A stretch of 64,000 bases of DNA from Spirochaetia bacterium (GTDB lineage: Bacteria > Spirochaetota > Spirochaetia > DSM-2461): the NCBI GenBank assembly GCA_963668315.1, contig OY764216.1, positions 2,400,001 to 2,464,000 on the forward strand. The letters are read 5' to 3'. The position numbers and the translations under genes were made by a program. Positions 6,110 to 39,101 of the stretch are shown here, one piece after another. The notes below the pieces were generated by a model. It was not told the origin of the DNA. It saw only the letters and a list, made by a program, of their open reading frames with translations, and did no database searches. Every line of letters starts with the position of its first letter. Within the stretch, counting starts at the first letter, position 1.

Positions 6110-6182
6110 GGCCAGAACTCCTTTTGTACGGTCAGTTTCTCAATTGTAACTCAGGAAGGGAGATTTTACCTAATCATTTTCT

Positions 6183-7414
6183 TAATGTTTTCGATTTTTG
6201 ACATCCTTCTCTGATTCAAACGGCCTTCTTATTTAAGGGATTAACCAGGTTTCTGTTCCAATGAGCTGCCTGATAACCGGTAAGACATTCTGTGAAGTCC
6301 TCGGTTCTTCTGCTTATTCCATAAAATATAGCCTGAATTATTTTATAGCGCCTTTCCAGTGAAATACCCGCTGCCTGGCAATGATAGTTGTATTTTCCTT
6401 TTCTTCTGTTAATCCGAAAGGGTTTAAGGAAATTATGCCAAAAACTATAGCAGGAAAACCTATCCATACTGTTATTCATATTTCTCCCGAATTGAACCGT
6501 TTCACGGATATATTCGGCCAGATCTTTTCTTATCTGACGGTCTATGTAATTGCAGGGAAATAGTTTGTTTAGATAGTTCCGTTCAACAAGAGAGTTTGTC
6601 GTACGGTGCAAAATCTTCGGTGATAGTGACCTATGGTTGTTAAATTGATAACGATAAATAGGGTGTTCATCCGTATCAATTATGATAGTTTTTAAGGACG
6701 ATTTATCGGCTTTTGTAGAGAGATAATCAAGAATTTCCCTAAATCGATGTGAGGCTGCTTTCCTTTCGAAACAGGCATCCCTGTAAAGCTTCTGCTTTTG
6801 TATTTTTTGTTCTTCCGTACATATTCCTTTACGTTTGAAGTGATAGGCGTTGAACATATAAATAAATTGGGATCGCTGTCCCACAAGGATATTTACATTC
6901 GTTGGAAAATACTGGGAAAGGATAAAGTTTTCCAGACCATCGGCTGCGACTGATTCATTCAATTCAAGATCATGGATTTCCTTAGCGCATACAGATGTAA
7001 TTCTGCGTGATAACCGCATCAGGCGGTTAATTATCATTTGGGGAGAACAGTGAAAAGCTCTGGCCATATCTCTTATCCCCGATCCGCTGACTAAATGATC
7101 TAAGAGTTTTATATAGGATAGATTCCTGTGGATATAATGGTCTATGGAGAAATAAGATAAAGAAAATGTACGATGACACTTCTTACATTGATATCTCTGA
7201 ATTCTTCCTATTCTTTTAGTGTAGATAAAACCTTTCTTCCGCATCCAGCCTGAATCGGCAGGCGGATGTTTATAATTCTGACAATGGCGGTTGGGACAAT
7301 AAAGTTTATCTTTCATATAAAGCCTCCTCTTTAATCAATGTTTACTTTAAAAGAGGGGAAAATTGTCCAAAATCCCTAATCATGGGGAATTCATGTCACA
7401 AATGGAGAACATTA
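6183..7414 (-). mobile_element. IS1-like insertion sequence, copy A (1232 bp)
   Basis: 22-bp imperfect terminal inverted repeats at 6183-6204 and 7393-7414 (19/22) enclosing one transposase ORF; AT-rich. Confidence 0.8.
6216..7316 (-). CDS. IS1-like transposase (Zn ribbon + HTH + DDE-like core), 366 aa
   Basis: CPNxxC...RYQCKKC Zn finger; SGIRDMAR HTH; acidic motifs ADG, TDEH, NYIDRQ. Confidence 0.75.
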   Translation of the reverse strand: MKDKLYCPNRHCQNYKHPPADSGWMRKKGFIYTKRIGRIQRYQCKKCHRTFSLSYFSIDHYIHRNLSYIKLLDHLVSGSGIRDMARAFHCSPQMIINRLMRLSRRITSVCAKEIHDLELNESVAADGLENFILSQYFPTNVNILVGQRSQFIYMFNAYHFKRKGICTEEQKIQKQKLYRDACFERKAASHRFREILDYLSTKADKSSLKTIIIDTDEHPIYRYQFNNHRSLSPKILHRTTNSLVERNYLNKLFPCNYIDRQIRKDLAEYIRETVQFGRNMNNSMDRFSCYSFWHNFLKPFRINRRKGKYNYHCQAAGISLERRYKIIQAIFYGISRRTEDFTECLTGYQAAHWNRNLVNPLNKKAV

Positions 7415-7416
7415 CA

Positions 7417-7425
7417 TGGTATAAT
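7417..7425 (+). promoter_or_regulatory. Extended -10 promoter (TGGTATAAT) for the GH5-like gene
   Basis: Perfect TGnTATAAT about 90 bp upstream of ATG 7517, 2 bp outside the IS end. Confidence 0.55.
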
Positions 7426-7516
7426 AAACATTCATATAAAACCGGACCGCCTTTGGATCGCCGGGCATAATCTGGTTGTTATTTACGTAATAAATCTCAA
7501 AGGGGGAGAATCTTTT

Positions 7517-8698
7517 ATGAAACCATTAAAGGATTACAGTTTTATCCGCGGCGTGTGTCATAACCCGACCCTGGGACTGACAAAAAAAGAGCTTGAGGAG
7601 AGGCTTGACAGGGAGCTTGGATATTGCCGCAAACTCAACTTGAATTCCATTCGTTTCTGGCTGGTCCCAGAGGAGTATAACAAGGATCCCAGGGGATACC
7701 TTGATATCATTGAAACTTTTATCAGGAAGTGCAATGAATTTGATATTACCGTGATGCCTATCCTCTGGAACGGGAATTTTATTACCGATTTTGAAGATCC
7801 CGGTGAAGAGTGGTATGAAAAGGCCGGAAAATATGCCGGGGATGTTATCGGCCGGTTTAAGGATGAACCGAATATTCTGATGTGGGATGTCATTAACGAG
7901 CCCATGTGCAACGACTATATGAACCATAGTCCGGCGGAAGAATATGATGTCCGTTTTGAGAAAATCAAAAAATATATCCGAAGGCTGTTCGCCATTGTCA
8001 AAGAACTTGACCGGGAAAATTGTCTGACCGTGGGACATGAGCAGGTCAGGCACTGTCTTTCCACCGATGATTTGGTGGATGTAATCTGTTATCACGACTA
8101 TCTGGGCACCCGCAGGGAGATCGAGGGAGCAATTTTCGACGCGGAGAGGCTGAGGGATAAATGGGACAAACCGATTTTAAATACCGAGACAGGATGTGTG
8201 GGCCGGGCAAATCCCTATGAGATAGAGCTTGAGCTGGCGCAGAAACACAGGGTGGGCTGGTATGTGTTTAATCTGATTTCCGAAGGATTCTGGGGCGATA
8301 TTCATGGTTTGGTATATCCCGACGGAACCATCAGGGATCCGGCAGTCATTGCGGCTCTGTTCGGCTTTTTCCGAAACAGGGAGGGAGGCCGAATCCCCGT
8401 CAATGCCAATAAGGAGGGGCACGCCGACAGGGCCGTTAAACGGGTGGAGGATGTCCTTCGGGTGGAGCCGACGACCCTGTTCATGTCAAGGGATAAAACC
8501 ACTGAAGAGATCCTGGACGCGGCGGAGTATTGCGTGAATATTCTGGAAGGGGCAGAAATGGTTCCCATGTGGAACCCTCCTTCGGCCAGGATAGAGGCGT
8601 TCAGAAGGATTCCCGAAGAAGAACGTGATGTTTATGAGATAAGAGAATTCGCCTTTAGTATGGCGAAACTCCTGAAAGAAAAATGTCATATCCTGTGA
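7517..8698 (+). CDS. Clan GH-A glycoside hydrolase (GH5-like), no signal peptide
   Basis: LNSIRFW, WDVINEP (acid/base), YHDY, NTETG (nucleophile); start MKPLKD after GGGGAG. Confidence 0.75.
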   Translation: MKPLKDYSFIRGVCHNPTLGLTKKELEERLDRELGYCRKLNLNSIRFWLVPEEYNKDPRGYLDIIETFIRKCNEFDITVMPILWNGNFITDFEDPGEEWYEKAGKYAGDVIGRFKDEPNILMWDVINEPMCNDYMNHSPAEEYDVRFEKIKKYIRRLFAIVKELDRENCLTVGHEQVRHCLSTDDLVDVICYHDYLGTRREIEGAIFDAERLRDKWDKPILNTETGCVGRANPYEIELELAQKHRVGWYVFNLISEGFWGDIHGLVYPDGTIRDPAVIAALFGFFRNREGGRIPVNANKEGHADRAVKRVEDVLRVEPTTLFMSRDKTTEEILDAAEYCVNILEGAEMVPMWNPPSARIEAFRRIPEEERDVYEIREFAFSMAKLLKEKCHIL

Positions 8699-8712
8699 TG
8701 AGGCCTTATTGT

Positions 8713-8745
8713 CGCTCCCTATTTTATTACGTATAGTAGGGAGCG
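8713..8745. terminator. Intergenic hairpin
   Basis: CGCTCCCTA...TAGGGAGCG. Confidence 0.45.
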
Positions 8746-8760
8746 TATAAGGAAAATTCA

Positions 8761-9510
8761 GTGATAAGTATAAAGAATCAGGATGAAATAAAGAAATTAC
8801 GGGAGTGCGGCATAATTCTCGCGTCTCTCTATCAGCATTTGGAACCCTATGTCCAGGAGGGAATTACCACCGGGGAGCTGGATCGTATTGCAGAGGATTA
8901 CATTCTGGGTAAGGGGTGCGTCCCTGTTCAAAAGGGGTATTACGGTTTTCCCGCCACCCTCTGTGTTTCGGTAAATGAAGAAGTGATTCACGGAATCCCC
9001 GGCAAACGAAAGCTCAAGGATGGAGATCTTGTCGGTATTGACTGCACCATTTCCAAGGACAGTCTTCTGACGGACAGTGCGAAAACTTTTCCCGTGGGAA
9101 ACATCTCAGCCGATGACCGGCTGCTCATGGAAAGAACGGCCAAAGCCCTTGAAGTGGGAATTTCAGTAGCCGAGCATAACATGCGGTCCTCTGATATCGG
9201 AAAAGCGATAGAGAGCTTTCTGAAGCCCTTCGGATACGGCATCGTCAGGGATTACTGCGGTCACGGGATCGGGTATGAGATTCATGAGGATCCCACCATC
9301 CTGCACTACTATTCCAGGCGATACAGCCGCCGATTGAAGGCCGGAATGGTTTTTACCATTGAGCCCATGATCAACAGGGGAACCCATAAGGTCGAAGTCC
9401 TCGAGGATGAGTGGACCGTGGTGACGGCCGACGGTCTGAAATCCTGTCATTTCGAGCATACCATCTGTCTGACCGAGACGGGATGCGAGATTCTGACCCT
9501 TCCCGAATAG
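8761..9510 (+). CDS. map: Methionine aminopeptidase type I
   Basis: SVNEEVIHGIP, DSAKT, GHGIG.EIHEDP, FTIEPMIN, SCHFEHTI. Confidence 0.95.
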   Translation: MISIKNQDEIKKLRECGIILASLYQHLEPYVQEGITTGELDRIAEDYILGKGCVPVQKGYYGFPATLCVSVNEEVIHGIPGKRKLKDGDLVGIDCTISKDSLLTDSAKTFPVGNISADDRLLMERTAKALEVGISVAEHNMRSSDIGKAIESFLKPFGYGIVRDYCGHGIGYEIHEDPTILHYYSRRYSRRLKAGMVFTIEPMINRGTHKVEVLEDEWTVVTADGLKSCHFEHTICLTETGCEILTLPE

Positions 9511-9535
9511 ATCGGCAAAACAGAGGAACAGTCAT

Positions 9536-10498
9536 ATGGCGAAAATATATACCATGGGAGAGATCCTTGTTGAAATTATGAGGGATTCCGTAGATTCTCC
9601 CCTGAATGAACCGGGGCGTTTTGTCGGTCCCTTTCCTTCCGGTGCCCCGGCAATTTTCATTTCCACCGCCGCCCAATTGGGTCATGAGGCCAAAATCTGG
9701 GGCGGTACGGGCAAGGATAAGTTCGGGGAGCTTCTCCTCGGACGTCTGACCGCCGACGGGGTGGACTGCTCAGATATCAGGGCGCAGGAGAAGGGATCGA
9801 CAGCTGTCGCTTTTGTTTCCTACGCATCCGACGGGAGCAGAGAGTTTATCTTCCATATCGACGGCACCCCGGCCGGAAATGTTGTCTTCAGCGGGGAAGA
9901 AGTCCTTCCTCCCGATTACTTTCATGTTATGGGCTGTTCCCTGATGGTCAACGATTCCCTTCATGATAATATATGCCGGGCCGTTGAATGGGCCGTATCA
10001 AAGGGAGCCCGGATCTCCTTTGACCCCAATATCAGGCCTGAACTGCTGGGAGGTCGCGATGTGTATGACATCGCCGGTGCTGTTATCGAGAATACTTCTG
10101 TCTTTCTTCCGGGAGTTGACGAACTATTGATGTTTTCCCGGTCAGGGAATGTGGAGGAAGCGGTGGAAGAGCTGTTTTCCCGTTTCCCCCGAATGGAAAT
10201 TATACACCTGAAAAGAGGGAAGAGGGGCTCCACCGTATATACCCGCGGGGAACGCATCGAGATACCTATCTATCCTATTGAGAAGGTCAGGGATATCGTT
10301 GATCCCACCGGTGCCGGCGACTCCTTCGACGCCGCCTTTATCTGCGGTCTGGCCGATAACAAAACTCTGGAAGAGGCGGGGCACTACGCGGCTAAGGCGG
10401 GGGCGATAAACTCGACGGTGTTCGGGCCGATGGGAGGGGATATGAAGTTGATCGGCCACGATTTCCTTCGATCGAACAGGGGCGGCAGAACAACATAA
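9536..10498 (+). CDS. PfkB-family sugar kinase
   Basis: GEILVE, SGAPAIF, FDPNIR, VDPTGAGDSF. Confidence 0.9.
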   Translation: MAKIYTMGEILVEIMRDSVDSPLNEPGRFVGPFPSGAPAIFISTAAQLGHEAKIWGGTGKDKFGELLLGRLTADGVDCSDIRAQEKGSTAVAFVSYASDGSREFIFHIDGTPAGNVVFSGEEVLPPDYFHVMGCSLMVNDSLHDNICRAVEWAVSKGARISFDPNIRPELLGGRDVYDIAGAVIENTSVFLPGVDELLMFSRSGNVEEAVEELFSRFPRMEIIHLKRGKRGSTVYTRGERIEIPIYPIEKVRDIVDPTGAGDSFDAAFICGLADNKTLEEAGHYAAKAGAINSTVFGPMGGDMKLIGHDFLRSNRGGRTT

Positions 10499-10517
10499 TT
10501 AGAATACGGAATTCAGT

Positions 10518-10688
10518 ATGAAGGTAAAGAAAAGACTGGAACTATGGGGCTGGGGACTCTTCTCTGCGGGAAGCGGTATCTATTTTGTGGAGAGTCTTAT
10601 TAATGGGAATCCTCTCGCTATGACGGGAAGCGCCGCCTTTTGCATCGGATGCGTCTGTTTTATTCTCAGCGAGAGATTTAAGGATTAG
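10518..10688 (+). CDS. Small 56-aa two-TM membrane protein (below the ORF-track cutoff)
   Basis: MKVKKRLELWGWGLFSAGSGIYFVESLINGNPLAMTGSAAFCIGCVCFILSERFKD; two hydrophobic segments; fills the gap co-directionally. Confidence 0.6.
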   Translation: MKVKKRLELWGWGLFSAGSGIYFVESLINGNPLAMTGSAAFCIGCVCFILSERFKD

Positions 10689-10791
10689 GCCTTTCGTTTT
10701 TCCTGTCACGGATGAGAGAAAAGGGCGGGGTGGATTATTCTGTCAATACATATTACAATTGTTATATATGATATGAAAGAGAGAAAAGTCC

Positions 10792-11517
10792 ATGGAATAT
10801 TTACAAGCCGCCGTTTTTTTAGAATCCCTGATCAAAGAAACAAATAATCTCCTCCTTCAGAATAAAGAGATGATTCTGGAATCTCCCAATCGGATGCGGG
10901 TTATTCTGGATGACGGAACCCGGGAGGATATTCCCATGGATTCCTACACTAATGACTATGTAAAGAGAACCCTGGATAATCTGGGAAGCTCGAAGGCGTT
11001 CATCATGACCGATATGGTCTCCACGGAAATTAAGGGAAAGGACGTCACCTATCTATCCTATAAAGCGTATCACGGGGAAGTTGATAAGGGGCTGGTTTTT
11101 TATCAGCTGGTGGACAAAATATTCCTCTCTCCCGTGGGACCCCTCCGTTTCAGCAATCTTGAGGATAATATTTTCTATAGGGTACCTTCTCCCCCAAGCG
11201 AAGAGAGCTCCTGCAATACGATGGAGACGGACAGAGTGGTGGAGAACGGAAAGAGCATTGTGTTCTTCATCGGGCATATGGATGAAGAGCGGCTTATCTA
11301 CGATATCCAGCGATTGATTTTCGATACGGTGAATAATGTGACAAGGCATCCTGAACTTCAATTCGAGTTTATTATCCAGATTGCCCGTTACGGAGCCGCC
11401 CCTTCGGATAATTTGAGAAGAAGTGTTGAATCCATAGAAGAGTACACGAAAAAGCATATCTATCCTGAATATCCCAATGCCACCTTCGATTTTATCTATG
11501 AGCAGGATGCAAATTGA
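10792..11517 (+). CDS. Hypothetical protein, 241 aa
   Basis: Long ORF with native composition and an AT-rich upstream region; no motif recognised. Confidence 0.65.
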   Translation: MEYLQAAVFLESLIKETNNLLLQNKEMILESPNRMRVILDDGTREDIPMDSYTNDYVKRTLDNLGSSKAFIMTDMVSTEIKGKDVTYLSYKAYHGEVDKGLVFYQLVDKIFLSPVGPLRFSNLEDNIFYRVPSPPSEESSCNTMETDRVVENGKSIVFFIGHMDEERLIYDIQRLIFDTVNNVTRHPELQFEFIIQIARYGAAPSDNLRRSVESIEEYTKKHIYPEYPNATFDFIYEQDAN

Positions 11518-11766
11518 AAATATCCGGCCGTCCCGACGGGCGGAAGAGGGGCAGAGAAATATTAATTTTTTCCCCTCAGTTTAAAATATTACCCCAAAAT
11601 CGTGTCACCTTTAAAAGAAAATCTTCTAGTGAAATGAAGAAAACCCCCGTACAATAAATCAAGTTTCCCGCTTTTCCGGCCGGATGAAGGGACTTCAGGA
11701 CATTTCCAGTTACAAGGGATGGAAAGAAGCTTCCATGGGAAAACATTCAAGTTTAGGGGTTTTATA

Positions 11767-13035
11767 ATGAAGAAAAGATTTTTTATGGTTTTAATCATTT
11801 CCGTATTTTGCCTGTCCATAGGGTTCGCCAACGGTAATTCGGAAGCAGGAGCCAAAGGCGGCGACGGTCCCGTAGAGCTGTCCATCTGGCATTATTTTGA
11901 ACATGAGGCGGAAGCCCTCGAAAAGGTGGCAGCCAGTTTCAGCGATATGAAGCAGAATGTCAATATCGTGGCCACCTACATTTCCCGTGAAGAGCTTATG
12001 AAACAGTACACCATCGGTGCCGTTTCGGGAAAACTTCCCGATATCGGGATGGTAGATTCTCCCGACCACGCCTCCTTTATTTCCCTGGGGGTTTTTGAGG
12101 ATATTACCGATGAACTGAAAGCCTGGGGGGAACTGGACCAGTTCTATAAAGGCCCCTTAAGCAGCTGTATGGACAGCGATGGCCGTATCTACGGTCTCCC
12201 GAACAACTCCAACTGCCTCGCTCTGGCCTGTAACATGGATATTCTTAACGCCGCCGGTTTCTCCGAACCTCCCCAGACATGGGATGAGTTTTATGAAGTG
12301 GCCAAGGCTACGACCAATCCCGCCGACATGGTATACGGATTCGCCATGAGCGCCAACAGCAACGAAGAGGGTACTTTCCAGCTGATTCCCTGGCTTTACG
12401 CTTCGGGCGCCACCGTTTCCACTCTGGATACTCCCGCCGCCGCTTCTTCTGTCGCTTTCCTGACTTCTCTGGTAGAAGAGGGGTATATGAGCAAGGAAGT
12501 CGTAAACTGGGGACAGGGCGATGCCTATAATGCTTTCTGTGCCGGAAAAGCCGCCATGCTCGAATCGGGTACCTGGCAGCTCGCCACCATCGATGACGAT
12601 ATCAATGGTACCTTTAATTACGAATACGCCTTCCTGCCCAAGGAAGCCAACTACGCCACGGTAATCGGAGGCGAGAACTTCGGTGTATGCGTCGGCTCCA
12701 GGGACAGAGAGATGAGCATTGAGTTCCTGACCTACCTGCAGACAGCCGAAAACAACGCCGACTGGTGCGAGATCGCCGGTAAGCTCCCCGTCAGGAAAGA
12801 CGCCGCCGAACTGAAGAGCTTCTGGACGGAAGACGAGAGATTCGCCGTTTTCAACGAAGCGATGAATTACTCCGTTCCCCGCGGTCCCCACGAAGAGTGG
12901 CCCACCATCTCCAAAGCTCTGTATACTTCTTTGCAGGCCGCTTTGATTGGCGAGAAAACTCCCGAGAAAGCCATGGCCGATGCCGCTGCCGTTGTTAATC
13001 CCATCCTGGCGGAAACACCCATAGCCGGGAATTAA
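11767..13035 (+). CDS. Carbohydrate ABC transporter substrate-binding protein
   Basis: Signal peptide MKKRFF...GFANGNSE; LPDIG, YGLP, GKAAM, GGENFG motifs. Confidence 0.9.
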   Translation: MKKRFFMVLIISVFCLSIGFANGNSEAGAKGGDGPVELSIWHYFEHEAEALEKVAASFSDMKQNVNIVATYISREELMKQYTIGAVSGKLPDIGMVDSPDHASFISLGVFEDITDELKAWGELDQFYKGPLSSCMDSDGRIYGLPNNSNCLALACNMDILNAAGFSEPPQTWDEFYEVAKATTNPADMVYGFAMSANSNEEGTFQLIPWLYASGATVSTLDTPAAASSVAFLTSLVEEGYMSKEVVNWGQGDAYNAFCAGKAAMLESGTWQLATIDDDINGTFNYEYAFLPKEANYATVIGGENFGVCVGSRDREMSIEFLTYLQTAENNADWCEIAGKLPVRKDAAELKSFWTEDERFAVFNEAMNYSVPRGPHEEWPTISKALYTSLQAALIGEKTPEKAMADAAAVVNPILAETPIAGN

Positions 13036-13042
13036 ATCCCAT

Positions 13043-13067
13043 AGGCCGCCTGTCAGGCAGGCGGCCT
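13043..13067. other. Intercistronic hairpin after the SBP gene (likely mRNA stabiliser)
   Basis: AGGCCGCCTG...CAGGCGGCCT. Confidence 0.5.
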
Positions 13068-13086
13068 CTCCTGCAAGGACCATTCT

Positions 13087-13983
13087 ATGAAACTGACCAT
13101 TGAAAAAAGGCGGAGGCTGGAAGGGTATATATTCATAGTTCCTGCTTTCACCTATATCGTATCCATACTGGGATATCCACTTTTATACAATTTTTATCTG
13201 AGTTTCCATAATACCAACATCAAGACTTTCAAAAAGGGAACCTCCGTGTTCGTGGGACTGGCTAACTATATTGACCTCTTCCATGATCCCACCTTCCTGC
13301 TGGTAATAAAAAATACCTTTATCTTTACCATAGGATGTCTTATCTTTCAATTTACCCTGGGGTTTATCTTTGCCCTGTTTTTCTCGAAAAAATTCACCCT
13401 GGCCGGACCTCTCCGGGGGCTCATACTCATCGGCTTCATGATGCCCATGGCGGTGACGGCCATGCTGGGAAAGAATGTCTTCGGGGTTTCTTCGGGACTG
13501 ATCAATGATCTGCTCTTAAAGGCAGGTTTAATTTATAATCCGATTGAATGGCTTGTCGATACCAAAACGGCCATGAAGGCGGTTATCGCCGTCAACTGCT
13601 GGGTGGGAATCCCCTTCAATATGTTGCTGCTTACGTCGGGTCTGACCAATATTTCCCAGGAGGTCTACGACAGCGCCGCTGTGGACGGGGCGGGATTTCT
13701 GAGGCAGTTCTGGCATATTACGCTTCCCCTTATCAAACCGGCGATGCAGGCCGTCCTGCTTCTGGGGTTCATCTACACTTTCAAAGCCTTCGACCTTATG
13801 TTCGTCATGACCGCCGGCGGTCCTCTCAACGCCACCGACGTACTGGGGACCTACGCCTATGAACTCTCGTTTACCCAGTATGACTTCTCTCTGGGGGCCA
13901 CTACGGCTCTGGTCCTCTTTTTCTTTCTTTTCATAGTGGGCCTCTTCTACCTCAGAATGATCGGCAAGGAGGAAAAATCATGA
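13087..13983 (+). CDS. Sugar ABC permease (MalF-like)
   Basis: EAA-like motif YDSAAVDGA..LRQFWHITLPL; multiple TMs. Confidence 0.92.
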   Translation: MKLTIEKRRRLEGYIFIVPAFTYIVSILGYPLLYNFYLSFHNTNIKTFKKGTSVFVGLANYIDLFHDPTFLLVIKNTFIFTIGCLIFQFTLGFIFALFFSKKFTLAGPLRGLILIGFMMPMAVTAMLGKNVFGVSSGLINDLLLKAGLIYNPIEWLVDTKTAMKAVIAVNCWVGIPFNMLLLTSGLTNISQEVYDSAAVDGAGFLRQFWHITLPLIKPAMQAVLLLGFIYTFKAFDLMFVMTAGGPLNATDVLGTYAYELSFTQYDFSLGATTALVLFFFLFIVGLFYLRMIGKEEKS

Positions 13984-14843
13984 CAACCGGCAATTACCTA
14001 CTGGACCAGCTGACCATACCGGCAAAGAGAAAGAACCTTATCTTCAACATCATAGCCCTCGCGATAACGGTGGTTTATCTTTTTCCCATATACTGGCTTA
14101 TCATGATGTCCTTCAAGTCCGACACGGAGACCTTCGGCAAGGTTCTGACCTACTTTCCCCGGGACTTCACCTTTGAACCGTGGCTGGAAAATCTTCGGGA
14201 TAAGGATCTGCTCACGTCCATAAGGAACAGCGCCATTATTGCCACCCTGTCCATGACCCTGTCCCTGACTTTCGGCGTCACCGCCGCCTACGGAATGGGA
14301 CGGTACCGAATTCCCGGGACCTGGCTGTTCCTTCTGGCTTTTCTGGTGACCCAGATGCTGCCCCCCTCTCTGATGCTGACCCCCATGTACCTGATCTTCA
14401 ACAAATTGGGATTACTGGAGACCTTTGTGGCGCCGGCCATCGCCGTGGCATCAGGATCGATTCCCTTTATCGTGGTGACACTCAGGCCCTACTTCAAGAG
14501 CGTCCCTGTCGCCCTGGACGATGCGGCCCGTATTGACGGCTGCAACGTATTCCGCGCCTTTTTCGAGATTATGGTTCCCGCCATCAAAACGGGAATCATC
14601 ACCGTCGCCATTATCAGCTTTCTCCACGGCTGGAATGATCTAGCCTATTCCATGACTTTCAACGTGCAGCCCGAAATGAGACCGCTGACGGCGAATATTT
14701 ACAAATTCCAGAGTAAATACGGCACCCGATGGAACTGTATCATGGCCTACGGGGTCATTCTGGTGATACCGGTTATCCTGCTGTTTGTCTTCATGCAGAG
14801 ATATATCGTGGGCGGACTTACCGCCGGTTCCGTCAAGGAATAG
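13980..14843 (+). CDS. Sugar ABC permease (MalG-like)
   Basis: LDDAARIDGC, QRYIVGGLTAGSVKE; ATGA overlap. Confidence 0.92.
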   Translation: MTTGNYLLDQLTIPAKRKNLIFNIIALAITVVYLFPIYWLIMMSFKSDTETFGKVLTYFPRDFTFEPWLENLRDKDLLTSIRNSAIIATLSMTLSLTFGVTAAYGMGRYRIPGTWLFLLAFLVTQMLPPSLMLTPMYLIFNKLGLLETFVAPAIAVASGSIPFIVVTLRPYFKSVPVALDDAARIDGCNVFRAFFEIMVPAIKTGIITVAIISFLHGWNDLAYSMTFNVQPEMRPLTANIYKFQSKYGTRWNCIMAYGVILVIPVILLFVFMQRYIVGGLTAGSVKE

Positions 14844-14897
14844 AAGAGACAAGAGAAATTAGACTGACTCAGCTTTAACAAGGAAGGAGAGATTTTT

Positions 14898-16961: not shown

Positions 16962-16987
16962 TTATAATAGAGCTGAGGAGGAAGTTT

Positions 16988-19006: not shown

Positions 19007-19007
19007 G

Positions 19008-19044
19008 AAAAACGGTCCGCCTTCCGGTTCCGGGAGGCGGGCCG
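19008..19044. terminator. Hairpin between convergent genes
   Basis: AAAAA-CGGTCCGCCTTCC...GGGAGGCGGGCCG. Confidence 0.6.
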
Positions 19045-19054
19045 CTCTCGGGAG

Positions 19055-21606: not shown

Positions 21607-21679
21607 TAATATCCCATTACAGAAAAGGATAAGGCGTAAATATCCATCGGTCAAGTTTTTGTTTGAAAGCCCTGATGGC

Positions 21680-22642: not shown

Positions 22643-22792
22643 GGGAGCCTCCCGGCGGGAAATTTCCTGCCTATGACAAGATTGTCGTTTTTTTATCACA
22701 AAATCAACCCCCACGGATAATTTTATCGGGGGATAATTTACTGACAGGATCCTGAACCTGATGACAGGTATGATCCGGGAGGTATAAACGAT

Positions 22793-26219: not shown

Positions 26220-26297
26220 CCCGATAGCAAATATCCCTTTACAATATAAAATCGTCCCCTGAGGGGGGATTATGAAGACGTCAGGAAGGAGAGAAAA

Positions 26298-28667: not shown

Positions 28668-28793
28668 GTCCAAACCGTTTCCAGAGCCGATATTCAGTTC
28701 AGCGATGTTGTGGCCGGCGCCGTCAGCGCTCTGGAGAAGGGTACGATAAAAGTCGTTCTTGTTCCTTCGCTTTTTTTAAGAGCGGGATCCTGA

Positions 28794-29555
28794 CTAAATG
28801 GCGGGCATGACATTCCCGCCGCAGACGGGAATATAGGCTCCCGAGATAAATCCGGCCAGATCTGAGGCGAGAAAGGCCGCCAGATTGGCAATGTCCTGAT
28901 CCGTTCCCCTGTGCTTCAGGGGGACGCTTTTCAGATATTCGCCGCTTTCTGCCAAGCCTTCTCTTCGTTCCCTGTCGCTTATCGTCCAACCCGGTGCGAT
29001 CTGGTTAACGGTGATTTGATGCTCCCCGATCTCCCTGGCGAGAACCCGCAGTACCCCGTCCATTCCGCGCTTCCCCGCGGCATAGGCCGACTGGGTGGGA
29101 GCGCATTGCATGGAACACTCCGTATTGATCCCGATGAAGCGACCTGCTCTCTTTTTAATCATGGGGGGAATGAACGTCTTTGCCAGAAGGACGCTCTGCA
29201 TGACGCAGGATTTGAACTGGCTTTCATAATCCTCCGGATCCTGATCGAGTACAGATTTCCAGTCGTATTGAACCACCGCATTATTGATGAGGATATCCGG
29301 ATCTCCCAGAATCGGACAGATCTCTGCCTTCATTTGCAGCACAGAGTTGAAGTCCGTAATATCCGCCTGCACCGCCAGGGCCGAGCGGCCCATTTGCTGA
29401 ATCTCCCCGGTCAATTTTTCCGCCTGTTCCCGGTTCCGGTGATAATGGACGGCCACGTCGGCTCCGCATTGAGCCATCGTCTTTGCCATGATCCTCCCCA
29501 GTTCCCCTGTGGCTCCGGTGATCAAGGCGACTTTTCCCTGTAAATTGATTTCCAT
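28794..29555 (-). CDS. SDR-family oxidoreductase
   Basis: TGATGELG, NNA, YAAGK, NQIAPG. Confidence 0.9.
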   Translation of the reverse strand: MEINLQGKVALITGATGELGRIMAKTMAQCGADVAVHYHRNREQAEKLTGEIQQMGRSALAVQADITDFNSVLQMKAEICPILGDPDILINNAVVQYDWKSVLDQDPEDYESQFKSCVMQSVLLAKTFIPPMIKKRAGRFIGINTECSMQCAPTQSAYAAGKRGMDGVLRVLAREIGEHQITVNQIAPGWTISDRERREGLAESGEYLKSVPLKHRGTDQDIANLAAFLASDLAGFISGAYIPVCGGNVMPAI

Positions 29556-29576
29556 ATCATCCTCCCCGTAAACAGA

Positions 29577-29608
29577 ACGCCGGCCGACTCAAAAATGGGC
29601 CGGCGTCT
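29577..29608. terminator. Hairpin between the esterase and SDR genes
   Basis: ACGCCGGCC...GGCCGGCGT. Confidence 0.5.
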
Positions 29609-29676
29609 TATTCTACCCCGGAGAGGAGAGACATACAATGGCGATGTCGTGAAAAGAAGGGGACGATTCCCGGGAA

Positions 29677-31305
29677 TTAGAGCCCCAGAAGGTTGTCAAA
29701 ATAGGCTTTCCAGAAATCCACTTTCTCCGGGGAAACCCCGTCGTAGACTCCCATGTTGTCGCCCAGTTCCATCAGCGCGAAATCCACGCCGTCGCAGGCG
29801 GGCCATTCGGCCAGACCTTCACCGTTGGGATTGCCCGTCCTGGCGAAGTTGACCAGGTAATCGGACATCTGATCGCCGATCGCGTAATCCTCCTCTGTCC
29901 AGGGACGGGTGGGATCCTGGTAGAAGATATTGAGGAAGTAGGGAACGTCTCCCGTATGGAAGGCGCCTGCTTCGGGTACTTCTCCCGCCGCGGGCAGGGC
30001 GTGGGTGAAAATATCCAGATAAGTCGCCGAATCGCCGTGGATGGCCCGTGCCTTGGCCAGTTCGTAGATACGCACGTTCATCTGGTCATGGACAATGTCG
30101 TTCTTGAGCAGATAATCGGCTTCCTCGTCGCTGGATGCGGGATAGAGAGCCAGGAATTCATCGGCCATCTCACCGTATTCGTCCGCTGCCATCTGCTTAT
30201 ATTGATCCAGGGTGAAGGCGCCACGGGGACCGATGATGCTCGTATCGCCCGATACGCCGCCGGCCAGGAGAGGAACGTCGATCTGCGATCCCTCTTTATA
30301 CACGTCGACATCGGCGGCGGGAATGACGAATCCGTCAATAGTCGGTTTGGTCGGGAAGCCCGGAGGATTTCCGGGAGCCATGAAATGGTTGGCCAGGCCG
30401 GCCAGTTCTTCACCGTCCATGGCTCTGAGTTCTTCAAGGGAACTGACGCCCATATAATCCATCATCGTCTTTCCCAGATCTTCCTGCTCGGCCACGGTGG
30501 CCATGGCTCGCCTCCCCAGGGAATTGAGGGGGTTGGCGCTCTGTGCTACGGCTTTATGGAAGAGTCCCTCTGCCAGGGGCGAAATACTCAGAAGATGAAC
30601 CATGCGGGAACCGGCGGACTGTCCCATGATGGTGACGTTCCCCGGATCTCCGCCGAAGGCTGCGATATTGTTCTGCACCCACTCGAGGGAGGCAATCGCA
30701 TCAAGGACACCGTAGTTGCCGGATACATGCTGGGGAGACTCCTCGTCAAGCTCGGGGAGGCCGAGGAAACCGAATATTCCCAGACGGTAGTTAACCGATA
30801 CGTAAACCACATCCTTTTCGGCAATCCTATCGCCGAAATAGACTTCACAGGAGGAACCGCCCGAATTCAGACCGCCCCCGTGGAAGAAAACGATAACCGG
30901 TTTCTCTCCGTTATGGGAATCCGAATCGGACCATACATTAAGGGTAAGACAGTCTTCGCTGTAATTTTTATTACCGATGATAAACTCGGTCGACCACATC
31001 CTGTAGGGCTGCTGGGGCTGCTGCCAGGCGCTGTTCCCGAAGGTCTCGGCGGCCTTAACTCCTTCCCAGGGGGCAACGGGCCGGGGAGCCTTCCATCTGA
31101 GCTCTCCCACGGGAGGGGCGGCATAGGGGATTCCTCTGAACGCCACCACGGTGGAATTTTCCAGGGGGGCTCCGGATATTCTGCCGCTGTCCAGCTGGAC
31201 GACTTCGGACAGGGTGAAGGAATGGCTTTTTCCCATACTCGCACAGGAAAAGAGCAGCGCTCCCGTCGCTAAGAGTAGAAGGCAACTTTTCATCGCTTTT
31301 TTCAT
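29677..31305 (-). CDS. Carboxylesterase type B, lipoprotein
   Basis: Lipobox LLFSC; FRGIPYA, SEDCLTLN, HGGG, GQSAG, GAFHTGD. Confidence 0.9.
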   Translation of the reverse strand: MKKAMKSCLLLLATGALLFSCASMGKSHSFTLSEVVQLDSGRISGAPLENSTVVAFRGIPYAAPPVGELRWKAPRPVAPWEGVKAAETFGNSAWQQPQQPYRMWSTEFIIGNKNYSEDCLTLNVWSDSDSHNGEKPVIVFFHGGGLNSGGSSCEVYFGDRIAEKDVVYVSVNYRLGIFGFLGLPELDEESPQHVSGNYGVLDAIASLEWVQNNIAAFGGDPGNVTIMGQSAGSRMVHLLSISPLAEGLFHKAVAQSANPLNSLGRRAMATVAEQEDLGKTMMDYMGVSSLEELRAMDGEELAGLANHFMAPGNPPGFPTKPTIDGFVIPAADVDVYKEGSQIDVPLLAGGVSGDTSIIGPRGAFTLDQYKQMAADEYGEMADEFLALYPASSDEEADYLLKNDIVHDQMNVRIYELAKARAIHGDSATYLDIFTHALPAAGEVPEAGAFHTGDVPYFLNIFYQDPTRPWTEEDYAIGDQMSDYLVNFARTGNPNGEGLAEWPACDGVDFALMELGDNMGVYDGVSPEKVDFWKAYFDNLLGL

Positions 31306-31428
31306 GGATTTAATATCTCCTCGTTTGTTTCAGATCGAAATGAGCCTGATGGATCGTCAATGCAAACATCTCCGATCATGAGATTGTCCCCAGTATTTCG
31401 AAAGGGGTGCAAAAAAAAAATAGTTTTT

Positions 31429-31460
31429 GCACAACTCGTATTTTCCATCGCACAACTGGT
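31429..31460 (-). promoter_or_regulatory. LytTR-type direct-repeat operator
   Basis: GCACAACT at 31429 and 31450 (period 21); minus strand ACCAGTTGTGC/ACGAGTTGTGC. Confidence 0.6.
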
Positions 31461-31588
31461 CGGCTGGGAAAATTGTGGAAAATTACGAATGCGGATAGGA
31501 TTTAATAAAGCCGTTCCGGGATAGCCTCCCGTCCGTCAAGCATCATTGTATTATTCCGGAACATAAAGAAAAAGGAGGAATTTCTTTT

Positions 31589-32272
31589 ATGAAATTCAAT
31601 GTGAGGATATTACCTTTAGTTCTTATTTTAGCTGTTACCATGGCATTTTCCTTTGTATCCTGTTCTTCCGATGACAAGAAGGAAGTGGTAAAGGAAGAAG
31701 TGAGCACCGTTGATCTGAACGAGAACGTTACTTCCGTATACGGGTCTTTCACTGCCCACTGGGGATTTGACGAGCTGTCCCCCGTTTTCGCCGAGCAGTT
31801 CACGGCCATGGAAACGGAAGACACCATGTGGCAGGACAGCACTCTACTTCTTACTCCCGTAGAAGCCGGCGCTCCCCGTGCCGCCGAGAGCGAGTACCAG
31901 TGGACCGAAGGCGATCATTACACCCTCGTAAAGAATCTGTACGCTTCCGGTTCCGGTATGTACATCTGGCAGCAGTTTACCGGTAAATTTACCAACGACG
32001 GCCGCAAGATCACTCTTGACACTCCCGAATACTACAGTTATTACACCTTCTTCGGAAAGTCCAGCGGTATGCATATCGATCAGGTGGCAGCCGGTGTTTT
32101 CACCGATGAAGAGGTAGGCAACAAGGTCGGAGGAAGAGCGGGCAACCATATCGATAACTTCGATACATGGCTGGCCGACTATCATAATTCCGCCGGTTCC
32201 GCCCCCATGGTCGTTGTGCTTGATATGAACACAAAAACCTTCGGATACTATAATCCTGACGACGACGAATAA
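31589..32272 (+). CDS. Uncharacterised lipoprotein
   Basis: RBS AGGAGG; lipobox FSFVSC; aromatic beta-rich body. Confidence 0.8.
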   Translation: MKFNVRILPLVLILAVTMAFSFVSCSSDDKKEVVKEEVSTVDLNENVTSVYGSFTAHWGFDELSPVFAEQFTAMETEDTMWQDSTLLLTPVEAGAPRAAESEYQWTEGDHYTLVKNLYASGSGMYIWQQFTGKFTNDGRKITLDTPEYYSYYTFFGKSSGMHIDQVAAGVFTDEEVGNKVGGRAGNHIDNFDTWLADYHNSAGSAPMVVVLDMNTKTFGYYNPDDDE

Positions 32273-32299
32273 AACGACATTATAGATAGTAGATATGGG

Positions 32300-32328
32300 A
32301 CAGAGCGATTATTCTTATAATCGCTCTG
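32300..32328. other. Intercistronic hairpin
   Basis: CAGAGCGATTA-TTCTTA-TAATCGCTCTG. Confidence 0.55.
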
Positions 32329-32362
32329 CTTGTGTTATGAGAGACTTAGTGAGGATAGGATC

Positions 32363-35275
32363 TTGAATATTAAAAAGGCAAACTTATATGTCATAACCGC
32401 TTATGCTGTTGTATTTCTGGCTATGACGATCGCGGCCAATGTCGTGATCAACCATTGGAGCGGGGCGCTGGAAGTGTACTTCGGGCGTATCGGTTCCACC
32501 GGAATATCGGATTTTGAAACGGAATATGCCACCGATGAGGAGCTGCTTCAGGCGGAAATCGACGGGGCCGTTCAAATCGTTGAGGAAGGGGCCACCCTTC
32601 TTAAGAATGAGGGAGGCGCCCTGCCCCTGGCGGCAGGGACGAATGTGAGCCTCTTCAGCCAGAGCAGCGTTGACTGGATAGGCGGGAACGTCGCCGGTTC
32701 CGATACGGCCGAATCGGTCGTCACCCTTAAGGATGTTCTGGAAGAGGAAGGAATCAACGTCAACTCAACTTTGTGGGATTTCTACAAATCCACCGGTAAC
32801 CGCAGGGATCCGGGCGGTAACAACGGCTACGGGCTGCATGAAGCCGATTGGGCGACCGTCAGCAGCGCCGCTTCCTCATCCTTTTCTTCCTACCATGATG
32901 CGGCCATCGTCGTATTCTCCCGTGTGAATACGGAAGGCTCCGACCAGGCGACGGACATGTCCCGCTGGGACGGCGAAGCCGGCGATATTTATATGAAGCT
33001 GAGCGCCACCGAACGGGGGCTGCTCAAAGGGATAAAAGAAGCCGGTTTCGGGAAAATCATTGTTCTCATCAACAGCGCCGTTCCCCTTCAGCTGGATTTT
33101 ATGCAGGACGAATCCTACGGCATCAGCGCCGCTCTTCTCTGCTCCGCCACGGGAAATAACGGCTTAACCGGACTGGGCAAGGTCATCGCCGGTATCGCCA
33201 ATCCTTCCGGTCATCTGGTTGATACTTATGTGTACGATAACTACTCCGCTCCGGCCACCCAGAACCTGGGGGATAACCGCTATGTGAACGCCGCGGGTGA
33301 AGTGATGGAATACAGCTACCTGAATTACGCTGAAAACATCTACGTCGGTTACAGATACTTCGAGACCCGTTACGAAGACAAAATTAAGGGCAGAGATAAT
33401 GTGGGCGACTACGATTACTCTTCCACCGTCGCTTTCCCCTTCGGATACGGTATGAGCTATACCACCTTTGACTGGACCGATTATACGATGACCTCCGAGG
33501 GATCCCATATCACTGTTTCCGTGAAGGTTACGAATACGGGAAATATCGCCGGCAAGGACGTGGTGGCTATCTACTTTCAGTCTCCCTACACCGATTACGA
33601 TATAGTCAACGGTGTGGAAAAGGCTTCCGTCGTTCTGGCCGCCTTTGACAAGACCAATCTCCTCAGCCCCGGCGAAAGTCAGGAAGTCGTCATGTCCTTC
33701 AATGCGGAGACCGTGATGAAGTCCTACGATTCCGAGGGAGCCAAGGGTTATATTCTCGAAGAGGGTGATTACTGCATAACCGCGGCACAGGATGCTCACG
33801 CCGCCGTGAATAACATTCTTGCCTTCAATGGCTTTACCGATCTTCAGGCTGCCGGCGAGACTCCTCTCGTTTATGACGCCGATAAGGTCGCCGTTTACAA
33901 GGTGGCTTCCTTTACGCACGTAGGTGAAGATGAAGTAACCGGAACCTCTGTTTCCAATCAGTTCGATTACGCCCGCGTTACCGACGATGAGTATCTCACC
34001 AGAAATAACTGGTCCATGATGGATAATAACGGATTGGATTATTCTACTGGGACTCAGACGGTCGACTATTATATTCTGCCCTCCTGTGCCGATGCCCAGG
34101 GAACAGTGGGAACCCATCCCATGAACGATGAGCTTCTGGCAAACCTTCAGGCTGTCGGCTGGGACGCTTCCGGCAGACCCGCCTCCGAAAAGAATGATTC
34201 TCCCGCTGTCATCAACTCCGATGATTCCGACGAGAGCGAGCTTACCCTCGTTCAGCTGAGAGGCGCTCCCTACGAAGACGAACGGTGGCAGATTCTTATC
34301 GAGCAGTTGAAAGTCAGTGAAATCCACGGCCTTTTCAATCAGGCCGGATGGTCCACGAAGCCTATCGAAAGCATCCAGATGCCCGGAACTTCCTGTAATG
34401 ACGGCCCGACCGGCCTCGGGAACTTCGTGAGCGGATGGACCAGTTACCGCTGGCCCTGCGAAACGCTTATCGCTTCCACTTGGAATACCGATATGGCCTA
34501 TCTTATGGGTTCCTTCGTTGGTGAGGACGGACTCAGAACCGGTGTCGCCGGTTGGTATGCTCCCGCAATGAACCTTCACAGAACGGCTTTCGGAGGACGG
34601 GCTTCGGAGTACTATTCCGAAGATCCTCTTCTTTCCGGATATATGGGCGCCAATACGGTCAGCGGCGCACAGGAGAAGGGCCTATTCACCTTTATCAAGC
34701 ACTTCGCGGTGAATGAACAGGATATCAACCGCGGGGATATTTCCATGTGGTCCACGGAGCAGGCCATGAGAGAACTCTATTTCAAACCCTTTGAAATCAC
34801 CGTGAAAGAAGGCCGCGCTTTGGGTGTCATGGATTCCCAGACCCGTCTCGGATACCGGTTCTGCAAGGGTAACTATGACCTTCTGACCACCGTTCTCCGT
34901 AATGAGTGGGGATTCCAGGGTACGGTCGTTACCGACTATACCAGCGACGGCGGCGCCATGGCGGAACAGTGTCTGGCTGCCGGTACGGATCTGATGCTCA
35001 GTTCTGCCGCTCTCCGGGTCCCCGATACCAAGGCTGACTATATCCGCCATGCTCTGCAGGACGCGGCATTCCACACGGCCTATGTCGTATCAAACAGCAG
35101 TCTGATGAACGGTCTGGCCGGAGGCGCCTCCTACAGCGCGGGCTTCCCCGTTTACGTGCTGATCCTGATCATCGTTGATGTTGTAATGGGGCTTATCATT
35201 ATACTCGCTGAGTTCTTTGCATGGCGCAGTTATCTGAAGGATAGGAAAAATACCGGGAAGGGGGCAAAGGCATGA
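32363..35275 (+). CDS. GH3 beta-glycosidase, permuted domain order, N- and C-terminal TM
   Basis: EGATLLKN first, then YAENIYVGYRYFETRY and Fn3, then DGP, YYSEDP, KHFA, VVTDY; TTG start inferred. Confidence 0.9.
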   Translation: MNIKKANLYVITAYAVVFLAMTIAANVVINHWSGALEVYFGRIGSTGISDFETEYATDEELLQAEIDGAVQIVEEGATLLKNEGGALPLAAGTNVSLFSQSSVDWIGGNVAGSDTAESVVTLKDVLEEEGINVNSTLWDFYKSTGNRRDPGGNNGYGLHEADWATVSSAASSSFSSYHDAAIVVFSRVNTEGSDQATDMSRWDGEAGDIYMKLSATERGLLKGIKEAGFGKIIVLINSAVPLQLDFMQDESYGISAALLCSATGNNGLTGLGKVIAGIANPSGHLVDTYVYDNYSAPATQNLGDNRYVNAAGEVMEYSYLNYAENIYVGYRYFETRYEDKIKGRDNVGDYDYSSTVAFPFGYGMSYTTFDWTDYTMTSEGSHITVSVKVTNTGNIAGKDVVAIYFQSPYTDYDIVNGVEKASVVLAAFDKTNLLSPGESQEVVMSFNAETVMKSYDSEGAKGYILEEGDYCITAAQDAHAAVNNILAFNGFTDLQAAGETPLVYDADKVAVYKVASFTHVGEDEVTGTSVSNQFDYARVTDDEYLTRNNWSMMDNNGLDYSTGTQTVDYYILPSCADAQGTVGTHPMNDELLANLQAVGWDASGRPASEKNDSPAVINSDDSDESELTLVQLRGAPYEDERWQILIEQLKVSEIHGLFNQAGWSTKPIESIQMPGTSCNDGPTGLGNFVSGWTSYRWPCETLIASTWNTDMAYLMGSFVGEDGLRTGVAGWYAPAMNLHRTAFGGRASEYYSEDPLLSGYMGANTVSGAQEKGLFTFIKHFAVNEQDINRGDISMWSTEQAMRELYFKPFEITVKEGRALGVMDSQTRLGYRFCKGNYDLLTTVLRNEWGFQGTVVTDYTSDGGAMAEQCLAAGTDLMLSSAALRVPDTKADYIRHALQDAAFHTAYVVSNSSLMNGLAGGASYSAGFPVYVLILIIVDVVMGLIIILAEFFAWRSYLKDRKNTGKGAKA

Positions 35276-35547
35276 AGGATAAACTGAATCTCTCTACGGC
35301 GGCATTGGCGCTGAGTATCATCGGCGGAATACTGGTCGCCTGTAAACTGCTGATTGTCGGACTTGTTCTGGCGGTCATCGGGCTGGTCCTTTCCATTGTG
35401 GGCTTTGTCAGAAGAGGCGAAATGTCCATTAATGTGTATCTGGCCTACTGGTGCATGATCGCCTGTATCACCATTCTCTTTCTGAGCGGGCTCGGTGCCA
35501 CCGGGTACACCGTTTACGATATGATTATGGGACATGATGTTAATTAA
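35272..35547 (+). CDS. Small integral membrane protein (91 aa)
   Basis: Hydrophobic helices; ATGA overlap with the GH3 gene. Confidence 0.75.
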   Translation: MKDKLNLSTAALALSIIGGILVACKLLIVGLVLAVIGLVLSIVGFVRRGEMSINVYLAYWCMIACITILFLSGLGATGYTVYDMIMGHDVN

Positions 35548-35550
35548 AGA

Positions 35551-36781
35551 TAATGTTCTAATTCTTTGACATATAAAAGAGGAACCTTTGGGATTCCGGT
35601 AAAAAATAGCCTCCTTCTTTTTTGAGTGCAATTAAGAAGGAGGCTATTTTGTCAGAACAGCTTTACTGTCCCAATCCCCGGTGCCGGAATCATAACCATC
35701 TCCTGGAGGACGATTCCTGGATGCGAAAAAAAGGATTTGTCATGACCAAGAGGGATGGAAAAGTCCAGCGTTATCAGTGCAAAGAATGCCTGGTGACCTT
35801 CTCTCTATCTTATTTCTCTATAGACTATTATGCTCATAAAAATTTATCCTATCCCAAGCTCCTTAATCATCTGGTCAGCGGATCGGGAATCAGGGATATG
35901 GCGCGGGCCATGAAATACTCTCCCTGCCTCATCTCCAATCGTATCCGGCGCCTATCGGAACGGGTTACTGCTTTCTGTGCGAAGGAGATTCATGATCTGG
36001 AACTGCGTGAATCGGTGGCGGCCGACGGCCTGGAGAACTTCATTCTCTCCCAATACTTTCCGACCAACGTGAATGTTCTGGTGGGACAAAGATCACAGTT
36101 TATCTATACCTTCAATGCGCTCCACTTTAAACGTAAAGGTATTTGTACTGACGAGCAGAAAAAGAAGAAGGCGGAACTCTATGAATCGGCCCGCTTTGAG
36201 AAAGGAGCCGCTTCCCGGCGATTCAGGGAAATCCTGGATTTCCTCTCGGAAAAGGCGGAGTCATCATCTTTAAAATCTTTCATTCTGGATACCGATGAAC
36301 ATCCTGTCTATCGATATCAGTTTGATCACCATGAATCCCTTTCTTGTAAGATTTCTCACCGTACCACCAACTCCCAAGTTGAACGAAATTATCAGAATAA
36401 GTTATTTTCCTGTAACTATATAGATAGACAAATCAGAAAAGATCTGGCCGAGTATGTCCGGGAGACGGTCCAGTTCGGGAGAAACATGAATAACAGCATG
36501 GACCGGTTTAACTGCTATTGTTTCTGGCATAATTATCTGAAGCCTTACAGGATTAACCGGAAGAAAAGGAAATACGAATATCATAGCCTGGCGGCAGGAT
36601 TCGCATTGGATCAGATCAAGGATACGGTTCAAGATGTTTTTTATGGGATCAGGAAGAAGGATGAGGATTTTATTGAATATCTCACTGATTATCAGAAGGC
36701 TCACTGGAATAGAGATCTGGTTAATCCGTTGAACAGAAAGGCTGTATGATATGAACGGAATGTCAAAGCATGAGAACATTA
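35551..36781 (+). mobile_element. IS1-like insertion sequence, copy B (1231 bp)
   Basis: Inverted repeats at 35551-35572 and 36760-36781 (20/22), same consensus and spacing as copy A. Confidence 0.8.
35649..36749 (+). CDS. IS1-like transposase, 366 aa
   Basis: Ungapped paralog of 6216..7316; TTG start after AGGAGG gives identical length. Confidence 0.75.
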   Translation: MSEQLYCPNPRCRNHNHLLEDDSWMRKKGFVMTKRDGKVQRYQCKECLVTFSLSYFSIDYYAHKNLSYPKLLNHLVSGSGIRDMARAMKYSPCLISNRIRRLSERVTAFCAKEIHDLELRESVAADGLENFILSQYFPTNVNVLVGQRSQFIYTFNALHFKRKGICTDEQKKKKAELYESARFEKGAASRRFREILDFLSEKAESSSLKSFILDTDEHPVYRYQFDHHESLSCKISHRTTNSQVERNYQNKLFSCNYIDRQIRKDLAEYVRETVQFGRNMNNSMDRFNCYCFWHNYLKPYRINRKKRKYEYHSLAAGFALDQIKDTVQDVFYGIRKKDEDFIEYLTDYQKAHWNRDLVNPLNRKAV

Positions 36782-38839: not shown

Positions 38840-38922
38840 TTCAGATAAACACAGTATAGAGATTTTTTTCCGGTTCGGAAATATTCAATCCGTTGACTTT
38901 CTGCAATTTTGTTGTGATTTCT

Positions 38923-39058: not shown

Positions 39059-39101
39059 GGGAGCCGAAACGCACCGCTTAGACCCCCGTGTTTCCGGGAA
39101 A

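Follow-up and report, generated by a model that had tools for sequence, protein, structure and literature searches.

Two intact, probably long-separated members of an IS1-related insertion sequence family in a Spirochaetia genome

The stretch analysed here, referred to as the window, comprises 64,000 nucleotides of a Spirochaetia bacterium genome (contig OY764216.1, positions 2,400,001 to 2,464,000; the genome is designated G000) and carries two insertion sequences (IS), element A (6181..7416, minus strand, 1236 bp) and element B (35549..36783, plus strand, 1235 bp), both given without target duplication. The explanation that best combines the evidence with a mechanism, and which we hold with good confidence, places A and B, both intact, in two old lineages of a single spirochaete IS family. 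The family, which lies outside the cut-offs of Pfam and NCBIfam, probably represents a new branch within an established type of insertion sequence, and its mobility is proven in relatives of G000 by dispersal, exact 9-bp duplications and one empty site.

Analysis of the two elements revealed in each an open reading frame (ORF) of 366 amino acids, coding for transposase A (6216..7316, minus strand, ATG start) and transposase B (35649..36749, plus strand, TTG start). For B the ORF caller picks an upstream TTG that gives 375 amino acids; the start at 35649 was preferred from the ungapped alignment and a ribosome-binding site. Element A is bounded by a right inverted repeat at 6181..6204 (plus strand), made of a variable terminal triplet and a conserved core, and a left inverted repeat at 7393..7416 (minus strand), and element B by a left repeat at 35549..35572 (plus strand) and a right repeat at 36760..36783 (minus strand). 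An earlier note on this DNA had reported two intact elements, and both ORFs and all four ends are indeed present; measured from the ends it gave, its distances to the start (98 bp) and to the stop (33 and 32 bp) are correct. It located the elements rightly, but the true ends lie 2 bp further out; the outer boundary was fixed by 9-bp duplications in relatives and one empty site, and transferred to G000 via the shared register. The 22-base motif that it derived for the ends fits the four ends of A and B with 1, 1, 1 and 0 mismatches and has six matches in the window (these four and a pair at 38921-39060), against a mean of 0.01 in shuffled sequence.

Alignment of the two transposases showed 72% amino acid identity (69% at the nucleotide level) with zero gaps. 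Comparison of nonsynonymous and synonymous differences, a check that the earlier note had proposed, gave proportions of 0.166 (pN) and 0.857 (pS), respectively. Since the synonymous sites are saturated at this pN, A and B represent old, separately maintained lineages. The conserved geometry in diverged copies, to which the note had drawn attention, is real but ordinary for separate IS lineages at 72% identity.

Searches of G000 with tblastn and with the family profile each gave 11 matches, all full-length and uninterrupted, nine of them beyond A and B. The 11 copies fall into six lineages: five copies with 96-99% DNA identity make up the largest, two copies (99.4%) another, and the remaining four, A and B among them, are singletons. 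A tree of 22 proteins indicated that the six lineages are not one clade (approximately unbiased test, p-AU 2e-73), and one lineage is 91% identical to P0005, a protein of another assembly. One open frame and no frameshift was found in all 11 copies, as the note had seen in A and B, but this feature is not distinctive, IS1595-family elements having one transposase gene as well according to the accessible part of PMC8101967.

The motif matches in the window also brought out the third pair of inverted repeats, which the note had overlooked. It bounds a transposase-less, MITE-like (miniature inverted-repeat transposable element) element of 140 bp (38921..39060, no strand assigned) with the same two inverted repeats and no ORF, upstream of a LytTR regulator gene. 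Scanning G000 with the end profile gave several solo ends as well as four closely spaced repeat pairs, each spanning about 140-155 bp. The other short elements with the family's repeats are at C1:2273978-2274116, 2656153-2656293 and about 4443160-4443315; two of them are within 1-2 bp of 140 bp, like that of the window, and for the two G000 short elements tested by blastn no interior similarity to other short pairs was found. Solo ends occur, for example, at 1231556, 1234747, 4148416 and 4449868; that at 4148416 is of left type and is situated 4 kb upstream of copy c4152 (a copy with a degenerate right end); C1:4148416-4153654 is possibly a composite unit of 5.2 kb. An inward-facing, -35-like TTGACA hexamer is found in every repeat of the window (6183-6204, 35551-35572, 38923-39058), and one hexamer of the short element points to the LytTR gene.

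Among related genomes, many of which are metagenome assemblies, 13 of 41 gave matches, with 25 in G013, 22 in G009 and 14 in G017; these three also carry broken copies. Same-genus genomes G002 and G003 (80% and 90% complete) had zero matches. The possibility raised by the earlier note that these are fixed syntenic genes was put to the relatives, and the transposase gene is not a fixed syntenic gene. From a species-level genome set 80 loci were kept, all spirochaete by title except two short contigs. The counts given below leave out 27 of these 80 loci (partial matches or repeats of copies already counted), four broken G013 copies (L037-L040), L041 (other lineage), L089 (left motif unmatched) and L205 (stop codon).

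The hidden Markov model (HMM) search that the note had suggested showed that no Pfam or NCBIfam model reaches its cut-off. For the IS1 model NF033558 (cut-off 100 bits), A and B reach 35 and 33 bits and the best of 14 distant members 44.6, scores lying at 19-45 bits, around a third of the cut-off, and covering the N-terminal part only; 48 of 52 members match it weakly (best E 3e-10). Pfam gave weak matches only, PF03400 being found in 1 of 52 members (E 0.029). A profile search of a protein cluster library (50%-identity clusters, without taxa) retrieved 483 cluster representatives at a threshold of E 1e-30, and 2151 when this was relaxed to 1e-3; the weaker matches possibly cover the N-terminal part only, and at least 483 such clusters are assigned to the IS1-like family. 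The Atlas contained 30 look-alike clusters without a common Pfam family, and the nearest cluster having one carries PF03400 in 79% of its members. The automatic name 'IS1 family transposase' is attached to one Atlas cluster and one cluster member. No plasmid match to the family was found, nor was any description of it in the literature covered, which did not include ISfinder and the main IS1 and IS1595 reviews; the accessible part of the digIS paper (PMC8147514) contains no mention of Spirochaet- or Leptospira.

The AlphaFold2 model of the transposase (mean predicted local distance difference test score 90.5) places an integrase/transposase fold at residues 117-320 (Z 12.1, rmsd 3.2, 143 aligned residues). 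The top Foldseek match was ISCth4 of the IS256 family (E 1.4e-4; Z 11.3, rmsd 6.4), and no IS1 or IS1595 structures were among the fold-search lists. In a conservation set of 127 members, from which proteins shorter than 330 amino acids were excluded, the four Zn-ligand cysteines (C7, C12, C44 and C47 in transposase A) are conserved in 123-127 members. D126, at the end of strand 1, and D216, after strand 4, are found in 123 and 124 members, N256 in 122, D259 in 118 (with E in another five) and R263 in 125; at the N256 position E occurs in at most one. The codons of D126, D216, N256 and D259 are at 6939-6941, 6669-6671, 6549-6551 and 6540-6542 in A and at 36024-36026, 36294-36296, 36414-36416 and 36423-36425 in B. 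Although the match is weak, alignment with IS1 InsB (from L203) pairs D216 with the T-D of InsB, N256 with its E, D259 with its N and R263 with its R.

From these alignments the E-x-x-N catalytic helix of IS1 appears to be swapped to N-x-x-D, and the catalytic triad is probably D-D-N/D, not DDE. The IS1 architecture claimed by the note therefore stands for the Zn ribbon, the helix-turn-helix (HTH) and the RNase H fold but not for the 'DDE', the position of the E being occupied by N. E272 was considered as third carboxylate; it is present in 52 of 52 proteins of the close set but in fewer than 80% of the 127 wider members, and was rejected. Perfect duplications are found at copies that encode this same family motif, which makes an active enzyme likely. 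Within four relative genomes pN/pS is 0.09-0.19, indicating purifying selection.

Evidence for mobility comes from the ends of the copies in relatives. Next to the 7-base end N-N-N-A-(G/A)-T-G, exact 9-bp duplications occur in 8 of the 16 full-length copies of G013, in 1 of 12 in G009, in none of 7 in G017 and in 2 of another 53 loci, and the G009 counterpart of the L028 site is empty and holds the 9-mer once. The note's statement that the ends are IS1-like is borne out by the 7-base register of IS1 and by the 9-bp duplication, as in IS1B; terminal GG is found in 2 of 22 G000 ends, and TG at positions 6-7 is kept. A target bias near TAAGNNTTA was seen in G013 and G009, where flanks read outward from the ends favour TAAGG..TTA; it is weak in G000. 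Short-element ends number 18 in the 2.4 Mb examined of the 3.4 Mb of G009, of which 14 are paired (247-442 bp), and three have at least 8 of 9 bases duplicated. For B, the flanks are without orthologue in three same-genus genomes; for A, the neighbour gene is present in G002 and G003 with synteny lost, and the G003 orthologue has no element upstream.

Other readings of the ends were tried. A shared 3-base junction, which would leave one triplet directly repeated at the two ends, was not seen, and on inspection the pattern suggesting a TA duplication was compatible with target bias alone. A dif/Xer-like reading, based on a resemblance of the ends, was dropped after the duplications were found. 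Contigs from one study (two samples at most) contained no circular or excision joints. At L232 (G009), L278 and L307, sites equivalent to element-holding ones carry the ends of another family member, positioned at the same base or close to it, which points to reuse of the site. At L048 and L050 (G009), 8 and 9 shared bases of the left and right flank form a near-palindrome, with unrelated DNA beyond.

The population structure of the copies differs from that of other repeated elements in G000. No identical copies of the IS1-like family were found in any genome examined (minimum 15, 23, 25 and 18 differences), while identical pairs occur in all five G000 control families (39/91, 6/28, 15/15, 3/6 and 1/6). 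Duplications flank 7 of 14, 4 of 8, 5 of 6, 0 of 4 and 0 of 4 copies of other repeated G000 elements, the end definitions of the last two being possibly off. Within-genome differences are mostly synonymous, and four-gamete conflicts affect 31-62% of informative site pairs, increasing with distance in all five sets. The terminal triplet is hypervariable: at least three states occur at 14 of the 30 terminal sites, compared with 16 of the 659 that are four-fold degenerate (the sites being non-independent), and the edge of variability is sharp at end position 3/4.

Three cases tie the ends to the locus and not to the interior. The right flank, triplet and end variant of L090 are those of the left of L093 (99.6% over 450 bp); L022 and L046 occupy one site in two species, each resembling the copies of its own genome (98% and 97% versus 84%); and L049 lies 9 bp from a short-element end with the same end variant. 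In a breakpoint test, 18 of 32 G013 flanks were located in G009, and four of five duplication-less copies had flanks at least 11 kb apart. Copying of the triplets from the target was suggestive in L029 right and L042 left; L042 dissolved, since the flanking repeat continues variably, and as a general rule target-derived triplets are contradicted by L028, L031 and L033. The left flank of L042 is a dispersed repeat of about 150 bp with more than 25 matches in the examined G009 DNA (e.g. L224, L249, L260, L278, L295); it was considered as a short element of the family, and a second end was not found.

Upstream of the transposase ORF, a hairpin is predicted to hide the ribosome-binding site of B (35603..35650, plus strand, -28.6 kcal/mol, z -7.8), and a weak one (z -1.0) is predicted over that of A (7323..7358, minus strand). 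A stem at this site is predicted in 10 of 10 folded leaders, with little covariation. Frameshift control is described for IS1 in the accessible part of PMC12903888, and the folding suggests that the hairpin likely replaces it here.

We propose that the single transposase would bind the inner part of the ~24-bp end repeats and would cut three bases outside the core with the predicted D126-D216-N256/D259 site, its insertion duplicating 9 bp of the target, as in IS1. Recombination among resident copies would then shuffle interiors and flanks. A second route of copying may be an IS1-like replicative or circle-forming transposition, transposase output would be held low by the ribosome-binding-site hairpin instead of a frameshift, and short derivatives could be mobilised in trans. 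Exchange between copies, beginning at their ends or close by, is the best reading of the absent duplications, the mosaic interiors and the triplets that stay with the locus. Whether host recombination and adjacent deletions lie behind these patterns we judge to be evenly balanced; host recombination, adjacent deletion (accessible part of PMC11708052) and repeat-mediated inversion (accessible part of PMC3004938) can explain much. By analogy with the end-to-end reaction of IS26, the transposase might itself start the exchange, a tentative suggestion to which we give rather less than an even chance, and such an exchange would be a better account of why variability stops sharply at position 3/4. 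The boldest version, which we regard as doubtful, is a new family, comprising hundreds of lineages and standing alongside IS1 and IS1595, in which the third carboxylate would have moved one helical turn, the terminal bases would be ignored, and end-to-end exchange would be driven between copies and short derivatives, keeping the copies as intact mosaics and reshuffling the chromosome.

Several results weigh against the preferred explanation. The catalytic match to IS1 is weak (probability 0.1, E 0.53 with one sequence); a five-sequence IS1 profile gave probability 13.5 and E 0.002, keeping the T-D and R263 anchors with the E region gapped differently, and the N-terminal match to IS1595 (probability 92, E 5e-7) exceeds that to IS1 InsA (74). 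Of 10 leaders tested, six, not including that of A, have a hairpin reaching significance (z -2.8 or lower). No target duplication was found at any of 11 G000 copies, 7 G017 copies or 9 copies of L088-L101 (one with 8 of 9 bases), so that recent jumping in G000 is not demonstrated; in G000, end offsets from -4 to +7 gave nothing longer than 6 bp, and cross-matching of flanks between copies gave no exact 9-mer. One G000 control family is also mosaic (114/300 pairs), terminal hypervariability is weak in the G000 five-copy set (1 of 6 sites), the duplication-bearing L021 likewise had flanks far apart in G009, and strain mixing or assembly artefacts in metagenome relatives could mimic mosaicism.

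Part of this evidence bears on the strongest rival, for which the chance falls only a little short of even: an ordinary divergent IS1 subgroup, perhaps in ISfinder, in which RecA recombination and adjacent deletions act alone and unread terminal bases drift. The mosaic control family and the automatic IS1 names agree with it, and recombination between IS inverted repeats is known to invert DNA (accessible part of PMC3004938). It is harder to reconcile with the great excess of variability at terminal over four-fold sites, with the abrupt limit of that variability at position 3/4, with the lack in this family of the identical pairs seen in all five control families, and with scores of 19-45 bits against a cut-off of 100. 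Membership of the IS1595 family is improbable, even though one ORF and an N-terminal zinc finger are IS1595 features (accessible part of PMC8101967) and the N-terminal profile match is good. That match covers residues 41-114 only and no catalytic part, NF033547 is found in 1 of 52 members and none in G000, the duplication is 9 bp where 8 is usual in IS1595, and the helix after the triad aligns with the LARLRRK..Y/F motif of IS1.

It may also be asked whether the G000 copies have been domesticated, or have lost catalysis (E-to-N), and are retained for a host role, such as DNA binding at scattered end motifs. All 11 copies are intact and near gene boundaries, with neither fragments nor duplications, and solo end motifs are present, as this would predict. 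We nevertheless consider it very improbable, because the same N-x-x-D enzyme is encoded by G013 copies with perfect 9-bp duplications, G002 and G003 have no match and the G003 orthologue of the neighbour of A has no upstream element, the G000 lineages are polyphyletic with one 91% identical to a protein of another assembly, and broken copies exist in G013, G009 and G017. Membership of A and B in two old lineages of one mobile family remains the preferred explanation.

As a lineage missed by Pfam and NCBIfam cut-offs and often annotated 'hypothetical protein', the family implies that spirochaete mobilomes are under-counted. If true, an active transposase without the canonical third E or conserved terminal bases would refine the rules of DDE catalysis and end recognition. 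If the exchange were transposase-driven, the conservative reaction of IS26 type would reach beyond IS6 and would explain intact copies without identical sisters.

In the window, A is flanked by divergent genes, a chemotaxis-receptor gene (4031-6109) and a GH5-like gene. B is preceded by a 91-amino-acid ORF, and the TAA stop (36779-36781) of a convergent GHKL kinase ORF falls inside its right repeat; several further G000 copies likewise abut or overlap the ends of adjacent ORFs. A GH3 glycosidase ORF at 32330-35275 has the Pfam order C, Fn3, N, a circularly permuted arrangement. Elsewhere in G000, other multicopy elements, in groups of 14, 17, 6 and 5 copies, are densely clustered at C1:3.14-3.44 Mb and 4.28-4.30 Mb. 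GATAGTG ends, which resemble those of the IS1-like family, are found in two IS256-like families of G000, one of which is mosaic.

Among known systems, ISCth4 of IS256 is the top Foldseek match, and the GATAGTG ends of the two IS256-like G000 elements are a further likeness; IS256 differs in that a large helical insertion separates the second D from the third residue, these being 40 residues apart here, and in its duplication of 8 bp instead of 9 bp. For IS6/IS26, PF13610 matched 1 of 52 members weakly. IS26-type elements presumably lack an N-terminal Zn ribbon and keep GG ends. The GG end rule for them is given in the accessible part of PMC8944449, and that of PMC7885326 offers a precedent for transposase-started one-end exchange between two copies, with proposed branch migration and reported (unpublished) gene conversion, which would give mosaics and lost duplications. 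With IS1595 (NF033547) the family shares the single ORF and N-terminal zinc finger (accessible part of PMC8101967) and N-terminal profile similarity, and differs by its 9-bp duplication (usually 8 bp in IS1595), another motif after the triad and the lack of a catalytic-domain match.

With the IS1 family (IS1B of enterobacteria; NF033558, PF03400) it shares a Zn ribbon, HTH and RNase H domain, the T-D motif of the second aspartate, an R seven residues after the third catalytic position, repeats of ~23 bp, a 7-base end register with TG at 6-7 (GGTGATG/GGTAATG in IS1B) and a duplication of 9 bp (8-9 bp in IS1). IS1 encodes ~230 amino acids by frameshift in 0.77 kb, in contrast to one 366-amino-acid ORF in 1.23-1.3 kb here, and it lacks the basic insertion (F-K-R-K-G) after strand 3 and the C-terminal extension found here. 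Single-ORF IS1 members exist, and some IS1595 groups have DDN-type triads and unconserved terminal bases. The E of the triad, in a weakly supported register with apparent N-x-x-D for E-x-x-N, the GGnnnTG ends, the curated HMM cut-off and the insA/insB' -1 frameshift are IS1 features absent here. Since the E, the terminal GG and the HMM cut-off separate the family from IS1, and the catalytic domain of IS1595 is absent, it is best described as an IS1-related lineage and not as a member of IS1.

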